Made by a program: the position numbers and the translations under genes. DNA of 36,596 nucleotides. It comes from a virus. Below are positions 3,032 to 30,238 of the stretch, piece after piece (within the stretch, counting starts at the first letter, position 1; each line of letters starts with the position of its first letter). Below the pieces are notes generated by a model. It was not told where the DNA came from. It saw only the letters and a program-made list of their open reading frames with translations, and ran no database searches. The stretch lies in the IMG/VR virus record IMGVR_UViG_3300045988_163835; one strand, 5' to 3'.

Positions 3032-3077
3032 AAAAGTTGTAGTCGTGGTGACCTTTTCACCTAGTGTTACAACTTTT
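3032..3077 (-). terminator. Candidate terminator hairpin at the end of the MuF gene
   Basis: 10-bp outer stem (aaaagttgta/tacaactttt) plus an inner ggtga/tcacc helix. It overlaps the MuF stop codon. The U-run is short. Confidence 0.4.
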
Positions 3078-4716
3078 ATTTTTTTGTATTTATATTTTTG
3101 AATATTAAAAATTGTTTATCTTTCTTTATTCCAATTTCCTCAACCCATGGTGCTTTCCACTTAAATAATTTATCAATTTGTTTTACTAATTCATTAATAG
3201 TCAAAGGAGAGTCAGTAGCTTCAAACAAAAACTTTTTTGCTTGTTTTTCTTTTCCATCAACATTGTGGAATAATAGTTGGCTACTTTTGCCAGTAACAAT
3301 TTTCATATCATAGTTTCCTAAAAATTGTTTTTTCTTATATATAGTACAATCTGCAACGCTAATATTTTCTGGAAATTCCACTTCAGGATTTAATTGTATA
3401 TTTAATCCTGTTTTTTTTACCAACCAATCAGCAAACTCTCTTTCATTTTGTTTTGTTCTATATTTTACAAAATGATCATCAATAATATATTTCTCTCCGT
3501 TGTAATTAAATATTTCATCTTTTTCTAATACCTTTGTTTCTTTATTATTTACATCAGAAATATCAGACCATTGATTTGTTATATCAACATAAGAATTATT
3601 AATAAGTTTTTCTTTATCGTTTATCCATTGTTCTTTTCTATTAGCAAACATTTGAATATTAATAGGAGATATTGAACCATTTTCTAATCTATCAAATCTT
3701 TTGATATTTCTATCAATATAATTTAATTCATTATTATTAATTTCATCAATTCTATTATTTATCCAATTAATATCATTTTCATATTCTTCATCAGAATAAT
3801 TTTCTATATCATCAGCCTCCGGATAATAAGTCGTTAAGCCATGGCGACAATTTGGATGTAAAAACCCTTGTTTCATTGCTTCACTTAATAGCATGTACTT
3901 ACCATCTTTTTTTGTGCCACCAGAATACACATCATCAATAAATATTTTATTTTCCCATTTTTGACATATTGGACAAGCACCACCATGAGATGTTGATTGG
4001 ACTAATACTCTTCCTATAGATTTTCTAAAGTCTCCTTCCCCCATTAATTGAGCCCTTAAGCTTGCAGTTCTAACAGCCATTTGAGAATAACTGGCAATAT
4101 TGACTCTTCTGCCATTCTTATATTCGACACAGTTAAATCCTCTACTTAAAAAGTCTTTATTTGCTTCATCTATAGCAAGTTTAGTTTTTTGTAGTTCAGT
4201 TAATTCTTTAGTTGCCATTCTAGCAGACTGTTTTTCAGTAAAAACTCCATTAGCAACAAAAAAAGCACTCTTATGAATAACTTGCCTATACTGATCATTT
4301 GCCATTCTTAAAACTGCTGTGTTAGCGGTTTTTAAGTCATTATTTACAACTTTTATCAAAGCATTGACCTTTCTATCATTTGTTCTAAAAAAACTATGAT
4401 TCATTATTTTATTAGGTTTTAAATTTTTGCCCATTACTTTATTATACTGATTAATTGCATTAATAGAGCCTTGCTTAAGTTCTCTTTTTAAATGCTGTGA
4501 TACTTCATCAGATAATCCCTTAGTATAACCACCAATAATATCTTTATTTTCTCTTTGATATCTTTTTAATTCTTTCAACTTTTCTGATTGCCATTGAGAA
4601 TATTCAAAGCCGGTATCTTTTTCTTCTTTAAGATGTCTTTTATAGTTTCTTTTCATCGAAGATATCAATTCTATTTCCATATCTTCATATATTTTTTTTA
4701 TATTATAATCATTCAT
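3076..4716 (-). CDS. Minor head protein (SPP1 gp7 / Mu F-like) fused to a C-terminal PD-(D/E)xK-like domain
   Basis: 546 aa. The N-terminal ~300 aa sit in the MuF position after the portal and carry a CPICQ...HPNCRH motif. The C-terminal ~220 aa are additional and show E(425)REFADWL ... ADCTIY ... YDMKIV spacing. Confidence 0.8.
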   Translation of the reverse strand: MNDYNIKKIYEDMEIELISSMKRNYKRHLKEEKDTGFEYSQWQSEKLKELKRYQRENKDIIGGYTKGLSDEVSQHLKRELKQGSINAINQYNKVMGKNLKPNKIMNHSFFRTNDRKVNALIKVVNNDLKTANTAVLRMANDQYRQVIHKSAFFVANGVFTEKQSARMATKELTELQKTKLAIDEANKDFLSRGFNCVEYKNGRRVNIASYSQMAVRTASLRAQLMGEGDFRKSIGRVLVQSTSHGGACPICQKWENKIFIDDVYSGGTKKDGKYMLLSEAMKQGFLHPNCRHGLTTYYPEADDIENYSDEEYENDINWINNRIDEINNNELNYIDRNIKRFDRLENGSISPINIQMFANRKEQWINDKEKLINNSYVDITNQWSDISDVNNKETKVLEKDEIFNYNGEKYIIDDHFVKYRTKQNEREFADWLVKKTGLNIQLNPEVEFPENISVADCTIYKKKQFLGNYDMKIVTGKSSQLLFHNVDGKEKQAKKFLFEATDSPLTINELVKQIDKLFKWKAPWVEEIGIKKDKQFLIFKNINTKK

Positions 4717-22168: not shown

Positions 22169-22219
22169 CATAAAAATTCAATTTTTTTGAACTTTTTGAT
22201 TTATTTTTTTTTTATGATG

Positions 22220-24648: not shown

Positions 24649-25191
24649 ATGAATAACTATTGTATAAACTTAAAGAAAAGAAAGAATAAACCATATTGTA
24701 AATTACTAAATAAAGAAATAAAACTTTCCACTTGTAGGGAATGTGATAATAGAGAGTATAAGAAGGTCTCTACAGACTTCTGCAGAAAAATGCAGTGTTC
24801 TGCAGATATAAAACGAAAAAAGTCCACTTCCGACAAAAAAAGTCCGGCTACAAGTGGACTACAAAGTGGACTACAAAGTAGACAACAAAAATCAAATAAA
24901 CTAGCTAGTCTAGAAAGAAATAGATATAGTGTATTTAGTAATGATACTGAAAGATGTTACTTATGTGGTAGTACCTATAAACTAACTTGGCACGAAATAT
25001 ATTCGGGAAAGAATAGACAGAACTCTATGAGATATGGTCTATGCTTAAGGCTATGCTTAAATTGCCACTCTAAAGAGCAAGAAGATAGCCAATTTAACGA
25101 TTATTGGCACAAGCAAGGTCAATTATACTGGGAAGAAAATATTGGCTCTAAAGAAGAGTTTATCAAGGCATTTAGAAGAAACTATTTATAG
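24649..25191 (+). CDS. Zn-finger / HNH-like (beta-beta-alpha-Me) nuclease-domain protein
   Basis: 180 aa. N-terminal Cys pairs (C5, C17, CRECD). C-terminal CYLCGS...WHEIYSGKNRQNS...LCLNCH. GGAAG RBS. Confidence 0.6.
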   Translation: MNNYCINLKKRKNKPYCKLLNKEIKLSTCRECDNREYKKVSTDFCRKMQCSADIKRKKSTSDKKSPATSGLQSGLQSRQQKSNKLASLERNRYSVFSNDTERCYLCGSTYKLTWHEIYSGKNRQNSMRYGLCLRLCLNCHSKEQEDSQFNDYWHKQGQLYWEENIGSKEEFIKAFRRNYL

Positions 25192-27223: not shown

Positions 27224-27787
27224 TTATTTTAATTTTTTTGCTTGTATGCTTGTTGCATATTTACCAAAGCCATTATTCATTTCAAAAGGTTGTCCATTAT
27301 AACCTTTTGCTGCCAACTGCAGATAATATGTTTTGGTAGGTTCTAATTCTACTGTAAAAACTTTTAACGGTAAAGCCCAATAGTTATTGCTAACACCGCT
27401 TCCTTGAAATAAAGTCCCTGCACCGCTTAGTAAATCGTTGTCAGTACCCTTTTCCTTTAATTTATAAAAAAGCCAAGCATTTAAACAACCTGATGTATAA
27501 CCACTTATTTCTAATAACTTAGTGTTTTTTATAACAATTCTATTATTACTTGTATCTGCTACAATGTCTCCATAACTAATTGGTTCTTCCCAACCTGTAA
27601 CTATAGTTTCACTATCAAATGTATTATATGCAAAATTAGTATGCATACTAGCAAAGCCAAAATTTAAATAATTACTCAATGTTTCTGCTTTACCATTATT
27701 ATCTTTTATTGCTACATCACTAGCATTTATCTTTTTATTTAATCCAAATAAATTACTTAATACTTGCATAATTTTATTTACTAACAT
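27224..27787 (-). CDS. Tail-fibre-associated protein B (187 aa); N-terminus paralogous to 27803..28255
   Basis: About 21/37 identity over MQVLSNLFGLNKKINASDVAIKDNNGKAETLSNYL versus MKVLKNLFGNNTKISASDIAIKNSNNKGMSLDNYL. The C-termini are unrelated. Confidence 0.55.
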   Translation of the reverse strand: MLVNKIMQVLSNLFGLNKKINASDVAIKDNNGKAETLSNYLNFGFASMHTNFAYNTFDSETIVTGWEEPISYGDIVADTSNNRIVIKNTKLLEISGYTSGCLNAWLFYKLKEKGTDNDLLSGAGTLFQGSGVSNNYWALPLKVFTVELEPTKTYYLQLAAKGYNGQPFEMNNGFGKYATSIQAKKLK

Positions 27788-27802: not shown

Positions 27803-28255
27803 TTATTTATAGCCAACAACCTTGTATATTTTTATATAACTTATTGTATATTTATCATGTGTAGTCAAGTCTACCAAACCGCATTTTCTAATTGATACAT
27901 TTCTATTATCTACATCAACAGTGGTCATCATTTGTTGTGCACTAGTGCCATCATAGATTCCTAATATCAGGTTTGCACTTTGTTGATACTCATAAAAAAG
28001 TTTTACACTACTGTTTCCAAAATTACCATTTTTACCATAACCAAAATATATTTCTAAATATTCATAGTTAGAAGCGCTATCGGTTAATGTAAAATTGGCA
28101 TTTGTTCCATCTGGATTATCATACAAGGTAGTTTTTTTTAGATAATTGTCAAGACTCATACCTTTATTATTTGAATTTTTAATTGCTATGTCACTTGCAG
28201 ATATCTTTGTATTATTTCCAAACAAATTTTTCAATACTTTCATTAAAGTTCGCAT
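27803..28255 (-). CDS. Tail-fibre-associated protein A (150 aa)
   Basis: TAATG overlap with the upstream fibre gene. N-terminal module shared with 27224..27787. Confidence 0.55.
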   Translation of the reverse strand: MRTLMKVLKNLFGNNTKISASDIAIKNSNNKGMSLDNYLKKTTLYDNPDGTNANFTLTDSASNYEYLEIYFGYGKNGNFGNSSVKLFYEYQQSANLILGIYDGTSAQQMMTTVDVDNRNVSIRKCGLVDLTTHDKYTISYIKIYKVVGYK

Positions 28256-28680
28256 TATTTAATCCTAATCCATATGTAACAAGTTATGTAAGGTTGTAAG
28301 TTGTTATGTGATTTATCTCCTCCAGTATTACCAGTTTCACGATATGGTTCTAATGCAGAGGAAACATTCCAATCACCACTTGTACCGTGTTGGAACCAAT
28401 CAACTCCAACATATTTCTCTGTATGAGTATGATTCGGCATTTCTTCAATTGTTAACTTATGTTTCTTTTCTCCGCCTGTTTGCTTAACAATTTTGAAGTC
28501 ATTATCATTTTCATCTACACACACTAAAGTTTTACCTTTTCCAAACAACTCCCAAGTACCGCCAAATCTTAAAGATGGATTTTCATTTCTTGTAGTTAGA
28601 AACAAGTCTCCAACTTTATAATAAGCATTTGGATAGTAGTTATCAGTACCACTTTTTAGCGTTCCACCTTTACAAGCCAT
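28255..28680 (-). CDS. Tail fibre/baseplate protein with tail-collar-like motifs
   Basis: 141 aa. Contains VGDLFLT...NPSLRFGGTWEL, GGEKKHKLTIEEMPNHTH and GGDKSHNNLQPYITCYIWIR. Confidence 0.6.
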   Translation of the reverse strand: MACKGGTLKSGTDNYYPNAYYKVGDLFLTTRNENPSLRFGGTWELFGKGKTLVCVDENDNDFKIVKQTGGEKKHKLTIEEMPNHTHTEKYVGVDWFQHGTSGDWNVSSALEPYRETGNTGGDKSHNNLQPYITCYIWIRIK

Positions 28681-28748
28681 AACTTGCTCCTATTGGAGTA
28701 GGTACTAAATAATACTCCCTCCAATCGTTAGAGAGATTATCGTTTCTG

Positions 28749-28796
28749 TTAGTAAACGACCCCCCCCCTCATTAACTTATAGTTTACTTTTTTCAT
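28749..28796 (-). other. 15-codon leader ORF containing the G9 tract
   Basis: ATG at 28796 with a GGAG 8 nt upstream. Sequence MKKVNYKLMRGGVVY, then TAA. Its length changes to 41 or 31 codons with G8 or G10. Confidence 0.25.
28760..28768. repeat. Homopolymeric C9 (G9 on the coding strand)
   Basis: Nine consecutive C at 28760-28768. This was the only long G/C homopolymer noticed in this AT-rich genome. Confidence 0.95.
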
Positions 28797-28807
28797 TTTC
28801 ACATCTC

Positions 28808-30238
28808 CTATTCTTCCCATTCCTCTTCTACTGTGAAGTAAAGAACTGGGTAATCATTCAGATTAAGTTTTCCATACACATCAACACCATCTTCACCAAT
28901 TGCCATTGCTTCTTGACCTTTTGGTAAGGTAATTGTTTCTGTAGCAATTACAAACACATCTTCAAAAGATATTTGAAACTGATATTCTTCATCATAGGCA
29001 AATGAACTACCTAATAGTAAATTACTTACCCTAAATGTATTGTCAGTAATAGTAGCAGTTATACTACCACCGTCAGTCCAATCAGTAGTTCCCGATTTTC
29101 TATATTTAAAACTACCGCTTAATGAATTAGCCTTAGTATCTGTAAATGAACCATTAAAGTATGCTCCATTACAATCTAAGTAAGCCTCATTAGATGTTCC
29201 CTCTGGTCTAGTAATTGAAATAGTATTTATGTGTAACTTGATGTAATCAATCATATCTAAAGTTACATCTGCTGAATTAGGATAATTTCTACTATCTGTT
29301 GCAGATACACTTACTTTATTTGAACCTATAGTATCAAAAGTGTTTTCTTGCAAATTAGAAGCTTGTCCATCATTCAAATTAATTGAATAATTTTTGATAG
29401 TAGCACTCTTTTTAGCAGTAGCACTGATTGTTACTTTTGGCTTAGATATATATTTAACAAATTTAGTGTTATTACCAGTTATAGTAGTTACATTTGTATT
29501 TGTATCAATAACTGTAGCAGTTACATCGGGCTTACATACACTTTCTTTAGCATATAAATTGAATTCTGTAGCTTGTGTATCACCTATTTGTGTATCACCA
29601 TTGTAGGTTGTACACAAAATATTACCTTTTATTTCTTTAGCAGTAGGAATTAATGCATATATTTTATCTTCTATTTCACTGGTTTTAAATTGTATCGTAG
29701 TTTCACTAGTTTTATCTTCAATATTTCCCACCAAATTTTTAATCTTGTAAGTAACTCTGCTTGTAAATGATGATGCTTTTTTGTCAATACTAATTACTGC
29801 ATTATCACCTATATAAGGACTACTACAAGCGACTCCGCTTGCTCTTGGTATTTGTGGTAAATTAGCACTAGCAGTAATAGTACCACTCCAACCCCAGTTA
29901 GGGAAACTAATTGAAGCATTACCAGTTACACTACAAGTTCCATCGTTATTGTGATATACCCAACCGCTAGTAGTTACACTTACTGATTCTCCAGTAGTGG
30001 GCCTTGTACAACCTGCACTTTGATAACTTGCTCCTGTACCACTTACACCAATTGTACCTTGATCATCTTGAATATAAGTTCTATCGTAGTAACTTCTTGC
30101 TTGATAATAAACATAAGTTCTATTATTTGCTATATCTTGTTCTGAATACCTAGCATATAATCTTACATATAGATTACCACCACTATTACCAATATACTTT
30201 TGGCCTAGATATTGCCAACTTGTTGTTAATGTTGCCAT
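28808..30238 (-). CDS. Tail fibre / receptor-binding candidate (476 aa, DUF859-like N-terminus)
   Basis: Large Ser/Thr/Asn-rich ORF downstream of the Tal-like gene. The N-terminus (MATLTTSWQYLG...YSEQDIANNRTYV) resembles siphovirus DUF859 proteins from memory only. Confidence 0.5.
   Translation of the reverse strand: MATLTTSWQYLGQKYIGNSGGNLYVRLYARYSEQDIANNRTYVYYQARSYYDRTYIQDDQGTIGVSGTGASYQSAGCTRPTTGESVSVTTSGWVYHNNDGTCSVTGNASISFPNWGWSGTITASANLPQIPRASGVACSSPYIGDNAVISIDKKASSFTSRVTYKIKNLVGNIEDKTSETTIQFKTSEIEDKIYALIPTAKEIKGNILCTTYNGDTQIGDTQATEFNLYAKESVCKPDVTATVIDTNTNVTTITGNNTKFVKYISKPKVTISATAKKSATIKNYSINLNDGQASNLQENTFDTIGSNKVSVSATDSRNYPNSADVTLDMIDYIKLHINTISITRPEGTSNEAYLDCNGAYFNGSFTDTKANSLSGSFKYRKSGTTDWTDGGSITATITDNTFRVSNLLLGSSFAYDEEYQFQISFEDVFVIATETITLPKGQEAMAIGEDGVDVYGKLNLNDYPVLYFTVEEEWEE

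Follow-up and report, generated by a model that had tools for sequence, protein, structure and literature searches.

A temperate siphovirus-like phage, assembled as IMG/VR virus record IMGVR_UViG_3300045988_163835, carries two tail-fibre genes which are separated by a short spacer with nine consecutive G residues on the coding strand. We examined this spacer, termed here the leader region, within the whole stretch of 36,596 bases (the window; G+C content 28.3%). Upstream of it lies a tail-fibre shaft gene (28808..30238, minus strand), whose product of 476 amino acids (aa) belongs to DUF859/phrog_372 'tail protein' (PF05895, E = 8e-34; phrog_372, E = 2.5e-67). Downstream of it lies a stand-alone Gp10_C tail-tip gene of 141 aa ('phage baseplate protein'; 28255..28680, minus strand; PF21939, E = 1.7e-29). 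The leader region itself (28681..28807, minus strand) measures 127 nucleotides (nt) and is kept in 30+ related loci. It is the widest gap of the late operon, in which the remaining gaps range from -4 to 54 nt. Its complete minus-strand sequence is UAGGAGAUGUGAAAAUGAAAAAAGUAAACUAUAAGUUAAUGA-G9-UCGUUUACUAACAGAAACGAUAAUCUCUCUAACGAUUGGAGGGAGUAUUAUUUAGUACCUACUCCAAUAGGAGCAAGUUAUG.

The poly-G tract (G9; 28760..28768, minus strand) runs from 28768 to 28760 and corresponds to C9 on the plus strand; with its immediate surroundings, the minus strand reads ...AAGTTAATGA-GGGGGGGGG-TCGTTTACTAAC... Across all 36,596 bases it is the sole G or C run of six or more. From the base composition of the window, about one run of at least six and 0.005 runs of at least nine would be expected, so that G9 is far longer than composition predicts, as the simple-sequence repeats of contingency loci are. 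A first-pass annotation, made from the sequence alone, had called the run at 28768-28760 improbable in such an AT-rich genome and had placed it between two fibre genes. Both statements were borne out, the flanking genes being the 476-aa DUF859/phrog_372 and 141-aa Gp10_C genes described above.

The tract is located in a short open reading frame (ORF) which has translation signals of its own. A Shine-Dalgarno (SD) sequence, GGAG (28805..28808, minus strand), stands 8 nt before the leader ATG at 28796-28794 and is overlapped by the stop codon of the shaft gene (TAG, 28810-28808). An upstream ORF with its own ribosome-binding site and start codon, as translational coupling requires, is therefore present in the window. 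With G9, this mini-ORF (MKKVNYKLMRGGVVY; 28749..28796, minus strand) comprises 15 aa and ends at TAA (28751-28749), 68 nt upstream of the tip gene. With G10, the frame would be read to a TAG at 28705..28707 (minus strand), giving a product of 30 aa that terminates 24 nt before the tip ATG. With G8, the leader extends to 41 aa and its TAA (28672-28670) starts 8 nt after the A of the tip ATG (28680). The resulting overlap of start and stop, AUGGCUUGUAA (28670..28680, minus strand; tip ATG 28680-28678, leader TAA 28672-28670), is the second hallmark of coupled genes and arises at in-frame tract lengths only; in the window family, such lengths open a leader ORF of 40-43 codons ending inside the tip gene. 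Changes in tract length thus shift the reading frame as they do in a contingency locus, the leader comprising 15 aa at G9, 30 aa at G10 and 41 aa at G8. The first-pass annotation had described much the same three states: the 15-aa ORF with its own GGAG was confirmed from the sequence, the product of 31 codons at G10, stopping before the downstream ATG, proved to have 30 aa, and the ORF of 41 codons at G8 that stops 8 nt inside the next gene was exact, this last arrangement being kept in other leader types as well.

The tract, 80 nt upstream of the tip gene, belongs to an ORF of its own that is read in another frame, and no frame fuses the two. One more in-frame ATG, in the segment 28820-28794 (minus strand) and inside the 3' end of the shaft gene, would add eight codons to the leader ORF (MGRIGDVK-M…); this variant was chosen by some gene callers (P0010, P0023-P0026). 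Covariance models of Rfam 15 gave no match with E up to 1 on either strand of 28000-29500, and a promoter scan predicted no more sites than in shuffled sequence, leaving the spacer without a convincing promoter. Megablast of the region against isolated phages returned no match.

Polymorphic tract and conserved frame geometry in related loci

About 30 loci with the same leader were recovered by exact-protein look-up and by DNA-pattern scans. Tract lengths were compared between consensus assemblies, and flanking sequences by gapped alignment. Among 27 non-redundant loci, the tract was G9 in ten, G8 and G10 in eight each and G5 in one. Several of these differences were found between nearly identical genomes. 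L213 (G8) differs from the window (G9) in one base over 2,800 flanking nt and L212 (G8) is identical to it over 914 nt, while L002 and L003, both G9, each differ from it by one base per 2,800 nt. The same holds for comparisons that do not involve the window: L014 (G9) and L022 (G8) differ at one of 761 flanking nt, L016 (G8) and L030 (G9 plus an extra T) at one of 800, and L012 (G10) and L017 (G8) at nine of 800. Since G8 and G9 are exchanged between genomes with 0-1 differences per 914-2,800 nt, which is the length polymorphism known from contingency loci, the tract changes while its flanks gain essentially no substitutions. As read from the assemblies, the tract is hypervariable between otherwise identical genomes.

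In-frame states can also be recognised at the protein level, where G5, G8, G11 and G14 appear as RG, RGG, RGGG and RGGGG, respectively. A search for in-frame peptides returned 17 clusters with one of these four motifs. At least eight leader-peptide backgrounds exist in both the RGG (G8) and the RGGG (G11) version, and RGGGG (G14) was present in one cluster. P0052 is the G11 version of the window's own leader peptide, and the in-frame G8 peptide of the window lineage (P0039) was found in 31 contigs and 48 index blocks, the exact 141-aa tip protein being found in 175 index blocks. Exact look-up of the short and of the G10-frame leader peptides in the protein collection gave no hit, a result which is uninformative since such short ORFs are rarely called; G10-frame leader ORFs of 30-31 aa are present in L012, L019, L026 and L029. 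Comparison of tract length in relatives had been set out in the first-pass annotation as a check of its proposal of a phase-variable switch. The outcome was positive, with lengths from G5 to G14 seen and G8 standing against G9 in near-identical flanks, and together with the conserved frame geometry described below this polymorphism supports the proposal at the level of sequence. Four points go beyond that annotation: the conserved in-frame leader ORF with its coupling geometry, the place of the leader at the division of a fibre into shaft and tip, the predicted pairing of the G-run with CUCUCU and the wide occurrence of the design.

Other traits of the leader are retained along with the tract. 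All relatives of the window family have an SD-like AGGA or GGAG and the ATG, the bases between them being variable. The early stop after 15 codons falls within the conserved UUUACUAA in the window family, and the motif TTTAYTAA, which contains it, is also retained 3' of the tract in L011, L115 and L045-type leaders.

Some members of the window family show variations of a different kind. In L007, L018 and L020, a T-to-G substitution beside the tract turns G9-T into G10 with total length and frame unchanged; point mutation can therefore lengthen the mutable run. In L004/L032 (CAVCHK010000007.1) the tract is reduced to G5, which is in frame and presumably much less mutable, and this may be a 'locked-ON' variant. 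The label Paludibacteraceae of the corresponding metagenome-assembled genome (MAG) is probably a binning error for a Bacillota phage of 29-31% G+C. In L021 (G9; downstream start ATGCGAACTTTT), the leader is followed not by a Gp10_C gene but by a homologue (MRTFMKVLKNL…) of the 150-aa gene that stands behind the tip gene in the window, and the leader therefore appears as a portable module boundary.

Further leader types (L045/L063/L084/L089, L115, L132, L147 and L155) were found by means of the downstream protein, independently of leader sequence, and some of them have no alignable sequence. The seven leaders that we compared represent six independent types, namely that of the window, that shared by L045 and L084, and those of L115, L132, L147 and L155. 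In all types, 6-12 codons are followed by G7-G11, and a strong SD precedes the leader ATG in every type except L155, which has no evident SD. In each of the seven leaders exactly one frame reaches the next gene, and it ends 1-8 nt past the start codon of that gene. The overlaps in the six leaders other than that of the window are ATGACTAG, ATGGCTAA, ATGA, ATGAATAA, TTGGCTAA and ATGTTAA. When the spacers were shuffled, 10-38% of trials per leader gave such a geometry, and multiplied over all seven leaders this amounts to ~1e-5.

L045 and L084 are especially instructive. They share leader DNA, and a 1-nt deletion near the 3' end of the L084 leader shifts its in-frame class to G9, as against G8/G11 in L045. 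Each was observed in its own in-frame state, in which the shared DNA is read in different frames. It is thus translation itself that seems to matter, and not the peptide. On the evidence of these sequences, the property that is conserved is the ability of a ribosome to reach the next start codon, which is the signature of a regulatory leader ORF.

We also scanned 160 loci with Gp10_C-like genes, 790 kb in total, for homopolymers. The gene strand has 41 G-runs of at least seven bases and no C-run of that length. More than two thirds of these G-runs (29 of 41) fall 69-260 nt upstream of the Gp10_C signature NPxxxFGGxW, in two classes. The class at ~180-200 nt is the leader type. In the class at ~69-81 nt, the tract is inside the tip gene, ~22 codons past its ATG (…YEGGG…), and one length class yields the full tip protein. 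Two loci contain arrays of such genes. L207 (520-2430) has four consecutive Gp10_C-type tip genes, each with an intragenic tract, of which one is ON; L138 (700-2860) has three tip cassettes, again with one ON, plus a tract of the leader type. The intragenic tracts of both arrays measure G8-G10, and a single cassette per array is in frame as assembled. Retention of the repeat, which is expected of a contingency locus, is thus seen both in the G7-G11 tracts of six leader types and in the strand bias of 41:0. According to their labels, the host MAGs belong to uncultured gut Bacilli, Clostridia and Bacillota. A G9 run in a mini-ORF of eight codons was also observed at L196 (3470-3625), where it precedes a different kind of fibre gene (MNVNGKYLKDESG…).

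The divided fibre and its genomic setting

Streptococcus 'Javan' prophages are the closest cultured relatives, at the protein level only. One of them, Javan51, encodes homologues of shaft and tip, whose order is unchanged and whose place in the genome, directly ahead of the lysis genes, is that of the window. Residues 94-458 of the shaft protein align to residues 85-476 of the 618-aa structural protein of Javan51 (QBX20174.1; 26% identity over ~400 aa), and the tip protein aligns to residues 495-616, the C-terminal 122 residues, with 48% identity. In Javan51, however, shaft and tip form one polypeptide of 618 aa with no annotated break between them, whereas in the window family the tip is separate and stands behind the leader. 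Since the fused protein aligns to both gene products, the fibre of the window family is, judging from these alignments, split at the shaft/tip junction, and it is this junction that the poly-G leader occupies.

Family searches give the same picture. Of the 626 positions in its Pfam profile, the shaft protein covers only 3-450. The tip protein matches PF21939 with 104 bits (cut-off 27) over positions 4-139 of 139; its matches among PHROG profiles are confined to C-terminal ends of longer tail proteins, and by sequence it weakly matches the T4 gp10 structures 2fkk and 5hx2. The best 120 of its 430 homologues are all stand-alone proteins of 92-199 aa. Both ends of the protein are conserved among homologues and the middle is variable. 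Two homologues are named, one as 'phage baseplate protein' and one as a hypothetical protein of a Candidatus Onthovivens MAG. An AlphaFold2 model of the tip, built with 36 homologues, was unusable (mean predicted local distance difference test score, pLDDT, 45.7; predicted template-modelling score, pTM, 0.20), probably due to modelling of an intertwined oligomer as a monomer.

Given this split, we considered whether the spacer could be the frameshifted remnant of an ORF once joining shaft, leader and tip. This is ruled out by the reading frames: the shaft frame meets a TGA two codons past its TAG, the tip frame has a TAG four codons upstream of the tip ATG, and neither alternative leader frame joins the tip frame. 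The leader peptide was likewise rejected as a remnant of a linker, there being no similarity to the linker of the fused Streptococcus protein.

Behind the tip gene follow two further genes on the same strand. The first (150 aa; 27803..28255, minus strand) is probably co-translated with the tip gene, as its ATG shares one base with the tip stop codon (TAATG). The second (187 aa; 27224..27787, minus strand) lies 15 nt downstream of it. The N-terminus of the 187-aa protein is a paralogue of that of the 150-aa protein, with 61% identity over 36 residues and complete divergence thereafter. Neither protein matches a Pfam or PHROG family; they resemble alternative distal fibre parts with a common attachment segment.

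The window as a whole represents a complete, circularly permuted genome, with genes for a tyrosine integrase, a helix-turn-helix (HTH) repressor-like protein, RecT, a DnaB_2 replication protein, a small terminase, a tape-measure protein, a holin and an Amidase_2/CW_7 endolysin. Three other features of it deserve mention. The 546-aa 'phage minor capsid protein 2' (3076-4716, minus strand) matches the CdiA_C toxin domain at its C-terminus (PF18451; 28.2 bits, cut-off 26.6), which is unusual for a head protein. The longest A/T run of the window, T10 at 22204-22213 (plus strand), is placed in the divergent intergenic region between minus-strand early genes and a plus-strand HTH gene and may fall in the lysis/lysogeny switch region. 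Finally, a cysteine-rich protein of 180 aa (24649-25191, plus strand) with no Pfam match adjoins the integrase.

Predicted leader structure, proposed mechanism and competing explanations

On the leader RNA, the following elements succeed each other: the G-run, a hairpin (H1), UCUCUCU, UUGGAGGGAG, a U-rich stretch, UACUCCAA and the tip SD, AGGAG (28687..28691, minus strand), which lies 6 nt before the tip ATG. Hairpin H1 (28740..28759, minus strand; UCGUUU/AAACGA with an 8-nt loop) directly follows the tract in both minimum free energy (MFE) and centroid folds, and shows a compensatory change from C-G to U-A in 5 of 14 aligned relatives. The pyrimidine segment UCUCUCU (28730..28736, minus strand) is invariant in all relatives, though it lay outside the search bait. 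Its predicted partner is the G-run, the CUCUCU pairing of which encloses H1 in MFE and consensus folds; alternatively it may pair with GGAGGGAG. The SD-like purine segment UUGGAGGGAG (28715..28724, minus strand) is predicted to pair with UACUCCAA (28693..28700, minus strand) in naked RNA and with UCUCUCU if the G-run is covered. UACUCCAA contains the anti-SD CUCC (28698-28695), and it is this CUCC that pairs with the GGAG of 28715-28724 in MFE and consensus folds; the tip SD then stays mostly unpaired, and a weak 6-bp hairpin holds the AUG in its loop.

A modelled ribosome on the tract, or one at the G9 stop, rearranges the pairing: CUCUCU pairs with GGAGGGAG and CUCC with the GGAG of the tip SD. 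The predicted probability that AGGA of the tip SD is unpaired is 0.52 in naked RNA, 0.21 with a ribosome at the G9 stop (~2.5-fold lower) and 0.55 if the ribosome stands at the G10 stop. In the model, a ribosome that terminates at an in-frame length would itself cover the tip SD and AUG. The first-pass annotation had listed alternative helices of this sort, in which UGGAGGGAG or the SD GGAG (28690-28687) pairs with CUCC (28698-28695). CUCC and the SD GGAG are in place, and UGGAGGGAG is found at 28723-28715 instead of the 28727-28719 given there. Its suggestion that ribosome traffic through the leader changes SD accessibility gains slight support, the SD being about half open in the model from the outset. 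Sequestration of the SD, at first a candidate for the main mechanism, was downgraded on these values to a modest contribution. The modelled effects of RNA structure are altogether modest; they are consistent with coupling of leader and tip translation and do not prove it.

Similar pairing is predicted elsewhere. Eight further leaders show it between their G-run and a segment rich in C and U; over the leader types folded, z-scores against mononucleotide-shuffled sequence ranged from -1.4 to -6.1. At L196 (position 3531), a perfect 10-bp helix between the G-run and AACUACUCCC stands beside an alternative 7-bp anti-SD:SD helix (CUACUCC/GGAGUAG), and this leader looks like a very clean version of the predicted switch with three segments. 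The CUCUCU:GGAGGGAG helix of the window (28736-28716) is at the same time a weak terminator-like hairpin of nine pairs, three of them G-C, with the U-rich tail GUAUUAUUUA and the G-run as a possible competitor. The terminator-like tail is not conserved in the L045 family.

We consider it probable, on the strength of the sequence comparisons, that G9 is a contingency tract in a translated leader at the shaft/tip split, and that its length sets the leader frame and, through it, translation of the tip gene. Slipped-strand replication errors would alter the tract by one or a few G and so change the leader frame. At G5, G8, G11 or G14, ribosomes would read ~41 codons and stop at the UAA 8 nt inside the tip gene (AUGGCUUGUAA); on their way they would melt the leader structure, and they could re-initiate at the tip AUG, which amounts to translational coupling with high tip expression. 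The 150-aa gene, through its TAATG overlap, would follow the expression of the tip gene. At G9, the state of the window, translation of the leader would end after 15 codons, and the terminating ribosome would cover the G-run and H1. This would release CUCUCU for pairing with GGAGGGAG and CUCC for pairing with the SD; the tip gene would be uncoupled and its expression lower. At G10, the stop 24 nt upstream of the tip gene would bring the ribosome on top of the anti-SD, probably resulting in an intermediate state. A lysate or a population of lysogens would then consist of subpopulations with differing amounts of tail tip, which may serve as bet-hedging on adsorption or host range. What the sequences show is the tract, its length polymorphism in identical backgrounds, the conserved frame geometry and the divided fibre; the effect on translation, the assignment of ON and OFF and the phenotype are what we infer here.

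Several observations weigh against this proposal. The tip gene is itself preceded by a good SD (AGGAG, 6-nt spacing), which is predicted to be about half open in naked RNA, and 'OFF' may therefore mean only a modest reduction. The SD/anti-SD helix has just 4 bp and the fold of the whole leader reaches z = -1.76. Most helix segments are invariant, partly since one of them served as search bait, and the support from covariation is therefore confined to H1. The frame classes are about equally frequent, with 9 of 27 loci in frame, a distribution which a neutral tract state would give as well. Last, tract length in single short-read assemblies may be miscalled by one base.

Alternatively, the in-frame leader might encode a functional protein of 40-43 aa, such as an adaptor or assembly factor for the detached tip, and phase variation would switch this peptide instead of tip translation. 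The leader peptide is indeed well kept in the window family (…NLS.DWREYYLV.TP…), the leader ORF is annotated as a gene by gene callers, and the indels beyond the tract (AAC, AAACAT, AAATAT, ACA and a 3-nt deletion in L041) are all multiples of three. These indels, however, sit in a predicted hairpin loop and represent two or three events only, so that we no longer regard them as proof of coding. Moreover, the in-frame states of L045 and L084 read the same DNA in two frames, no sequence is common to leader peptides of different families, and, as already noted, the linker of the fused Streptococcus protein shows no similarity either. The nucleotides, third positions included, are more conserved than the flanking genes, which argues for constraint on RNA or DNA. 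A functional peptide appears unlikely to us.

The G-run might otherwise act mainly as a structural element of the RNA, which holds the SD in an open arrangement or blocks the terminator; ribosome traffic or some factor would be the regulator, and variation in length would merely be tolerated. In favour of this are the pairing of the G-run with a C/U-rich segment in every leader type folded, the perfect L196 helix with AACUACUCCC beside its anti-SD:SD alternative and the terminator-like score of the CUCUCU:GGAGGGAG hairpin with its U-rich tail. A pure homopolymer is not necessary for pairing, though, and yet purity is kept at G7-G14 in diverged families. Neither does a structural role explain the strict overlap of stop and start in one frame, and the L045 family lacks the terminator-like tail. 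We hold this explanation to be quite unlikely.

It could also be argued that the tract is selectively neutral, a mutational hotspot at a recombination junction, where the leader serves as a homology patch for swaps of tip modules and the state of the tract is of no consequence. The leader does join varied upstream 3' ends and downstream genes in mosaics, preceding a gene of the 150-aa type in L021, and the frame classes are roughly 1:1:1. A pure run left to itself should nevertheless decay by interruption, whereas this one persists in six leader types, some of them without alignable sequence. G is always on the coding strand (41:0), the ORF geometry is the same throughout, and the intragenic versions in L207 and L138 plainly switch tip proteins on and off. 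Neutrality is, on balance, very unlikely.

Transcription can slip on long homopolymers, and in formal terms G GGG GGN is a slippery sequence. The tract might thus be a recoding site, at which ribosomal frameshifting or slippage of RNA polymerase yields all frames and length of the DNA hardly matters. A hairpin adjoins the tract directly, as could be expected of such a site; it begins, however, without a spacer after the run. Programmed sites have a fixed sequence, and the tract here ranges from G5 to G14. No frame fuses the leader to the downstream protein and both other frames end in stops; neither the fixed length nor the trans-frame product of a frameshift or slippage site is found. We rate recoding as highly improbable.

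That the tract or its length differences are an artefact of sequencing or assembly is hardly credible, and for the existence of the tract this explanation is largely refuted by the sequences at hand: short-read calls of homopolymer length do err by about one base, but the tract stands inside long contigs that come from many independent projects and assemblers (IMG/VR, ENA, Logan, NCBI MAGs), the in-frame lengths G8, G11 and G14, spaced by three bases, come up on numerous contigs, and position, strand and ORF geometry are conserved across families.

Known systems and biological meaning

Poly-G/C contingency loci are well known in surface genes of Neisseria, Haemophilus and Campylobacter, where slippage generates three frame states and stochastic ON/OFF switching. 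In these classical bacterial loci, the tract is in the 5' coding region of the gene or in a promoter spacer, whereas in the window locus it is in a leader ORF. Leaders of the trp and erm type, on the other hand, are short and translated, with an SD of their own, alternative pairings and a stop overlapping the next start. There, the supply of a metabolite, antibiotic or tRNA sets the position of the ribosome; here, tract length would do so, and heritably. Programmed variation of a distal tail-fibre or tip gene is known from inversion of the G segment of phage Mu and from the diversity-generating retroelement (DGR) of Bordetella phage BPP-1. Those systems alter the sequence of the protein by means of an invertase or a reverse transcriptase, while the present one would require no such enzyme and vary the amount or presence of the tip.

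The closest parallel is offered by phages of Campylobacter. Fletchervirus genomes reportedly contain hypermutable polyG tracts, slippage in which gives rise to subpopulations differing in a receptor-binding or tail protein. The window locus, as read from its sequence, resembles them in phage poly-G slippage and in the expected subpopulations with different tail proteins. The Campylobacter phages, however, are lytic myoviruses with tracts inside the affected genes, and their Gram-negative host itself uses polyG; the window locus has its tract in a separate leader mini-ORF upstream of the tip gene and belongs to temperate siphoviruses of low-G+C gut Bacillota. A tract inside the switched gene, absent from the window, is found in L207, L138 and L089, and the L207 and L138 relatives share the intragenic arrangement with the Campylobacter phages.

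In T2, T4 and other phages, simple-sequence repeats give rise to reversible frameshifts and to heterogeneity that has been read as bet-hedging (bioRxiv 10.1101/2025.10.21.683753; Gomez, Barrick and Waters). Those repeats are mostly of at least six bases, reside inside ORFs of all functional classes and are under-represented in tail-fibre genes of coliphages (bioRxiv 10.1101/2025.10.21.683753). The G8-G14 tract described here differs in that it is tied specifically to tail-tip genes, and acts, if our interpretation is right, via an upstream ORF. A literature search of incomplete coverage turned up neither a poly-G tract of this kind, in a coupled leader ORF, nor poly-G arrays of tip genes in Bacillota phages.

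A broader generalization can be offered only tentatively. Poly-G leaders may constitute a widespread, hitherto undescribed class of heritable cis-regulatory switches in gut Bacillota phages, in which the homopolymer would serve as mutable element and at the same time as a strand of the RNA switch (G-run : C/U segment : SD-like : anti-SD : SD). Its length would set three levels of expression of a detachable tip, one each for a coupled long, an intermediate and a short leader, and in relatives that have arrays of two to four independently switched tip genes this would bring about combinatorial bet-hedging on host range without a recombinase or reverse transcriptase.

The locus has consequences for the handling of phage genomes. 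In annotation and assembly, such tracts resemble errors, and the leader ORF comes and goes between assemblies. For host prediction, a consensus genome would be insufficient to tell which tips a phage carries. For engineering, the leader may offer a compact, portable and tunable stochastic switch. With respect to known phages, our interpretation would extend contingency loci from the intragenic frameshifts of Campylobacter and T-even phages to uncultured phages of Bacillota, and would add to them a mechanism based on an upstream ORF. It would also mean that splitting of DUF859-Gp10_C fibres into shaft and tip goes together with control by a poly-G leader. Host range of a phage is usually regarded as fixed by its genome. 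If the proposed mechanism is true, a reversible change of one base, outside any structural gene, determines whether the fibres of a temperate gut phage are equipped with a given tip, and one prophage would release a mixed population.

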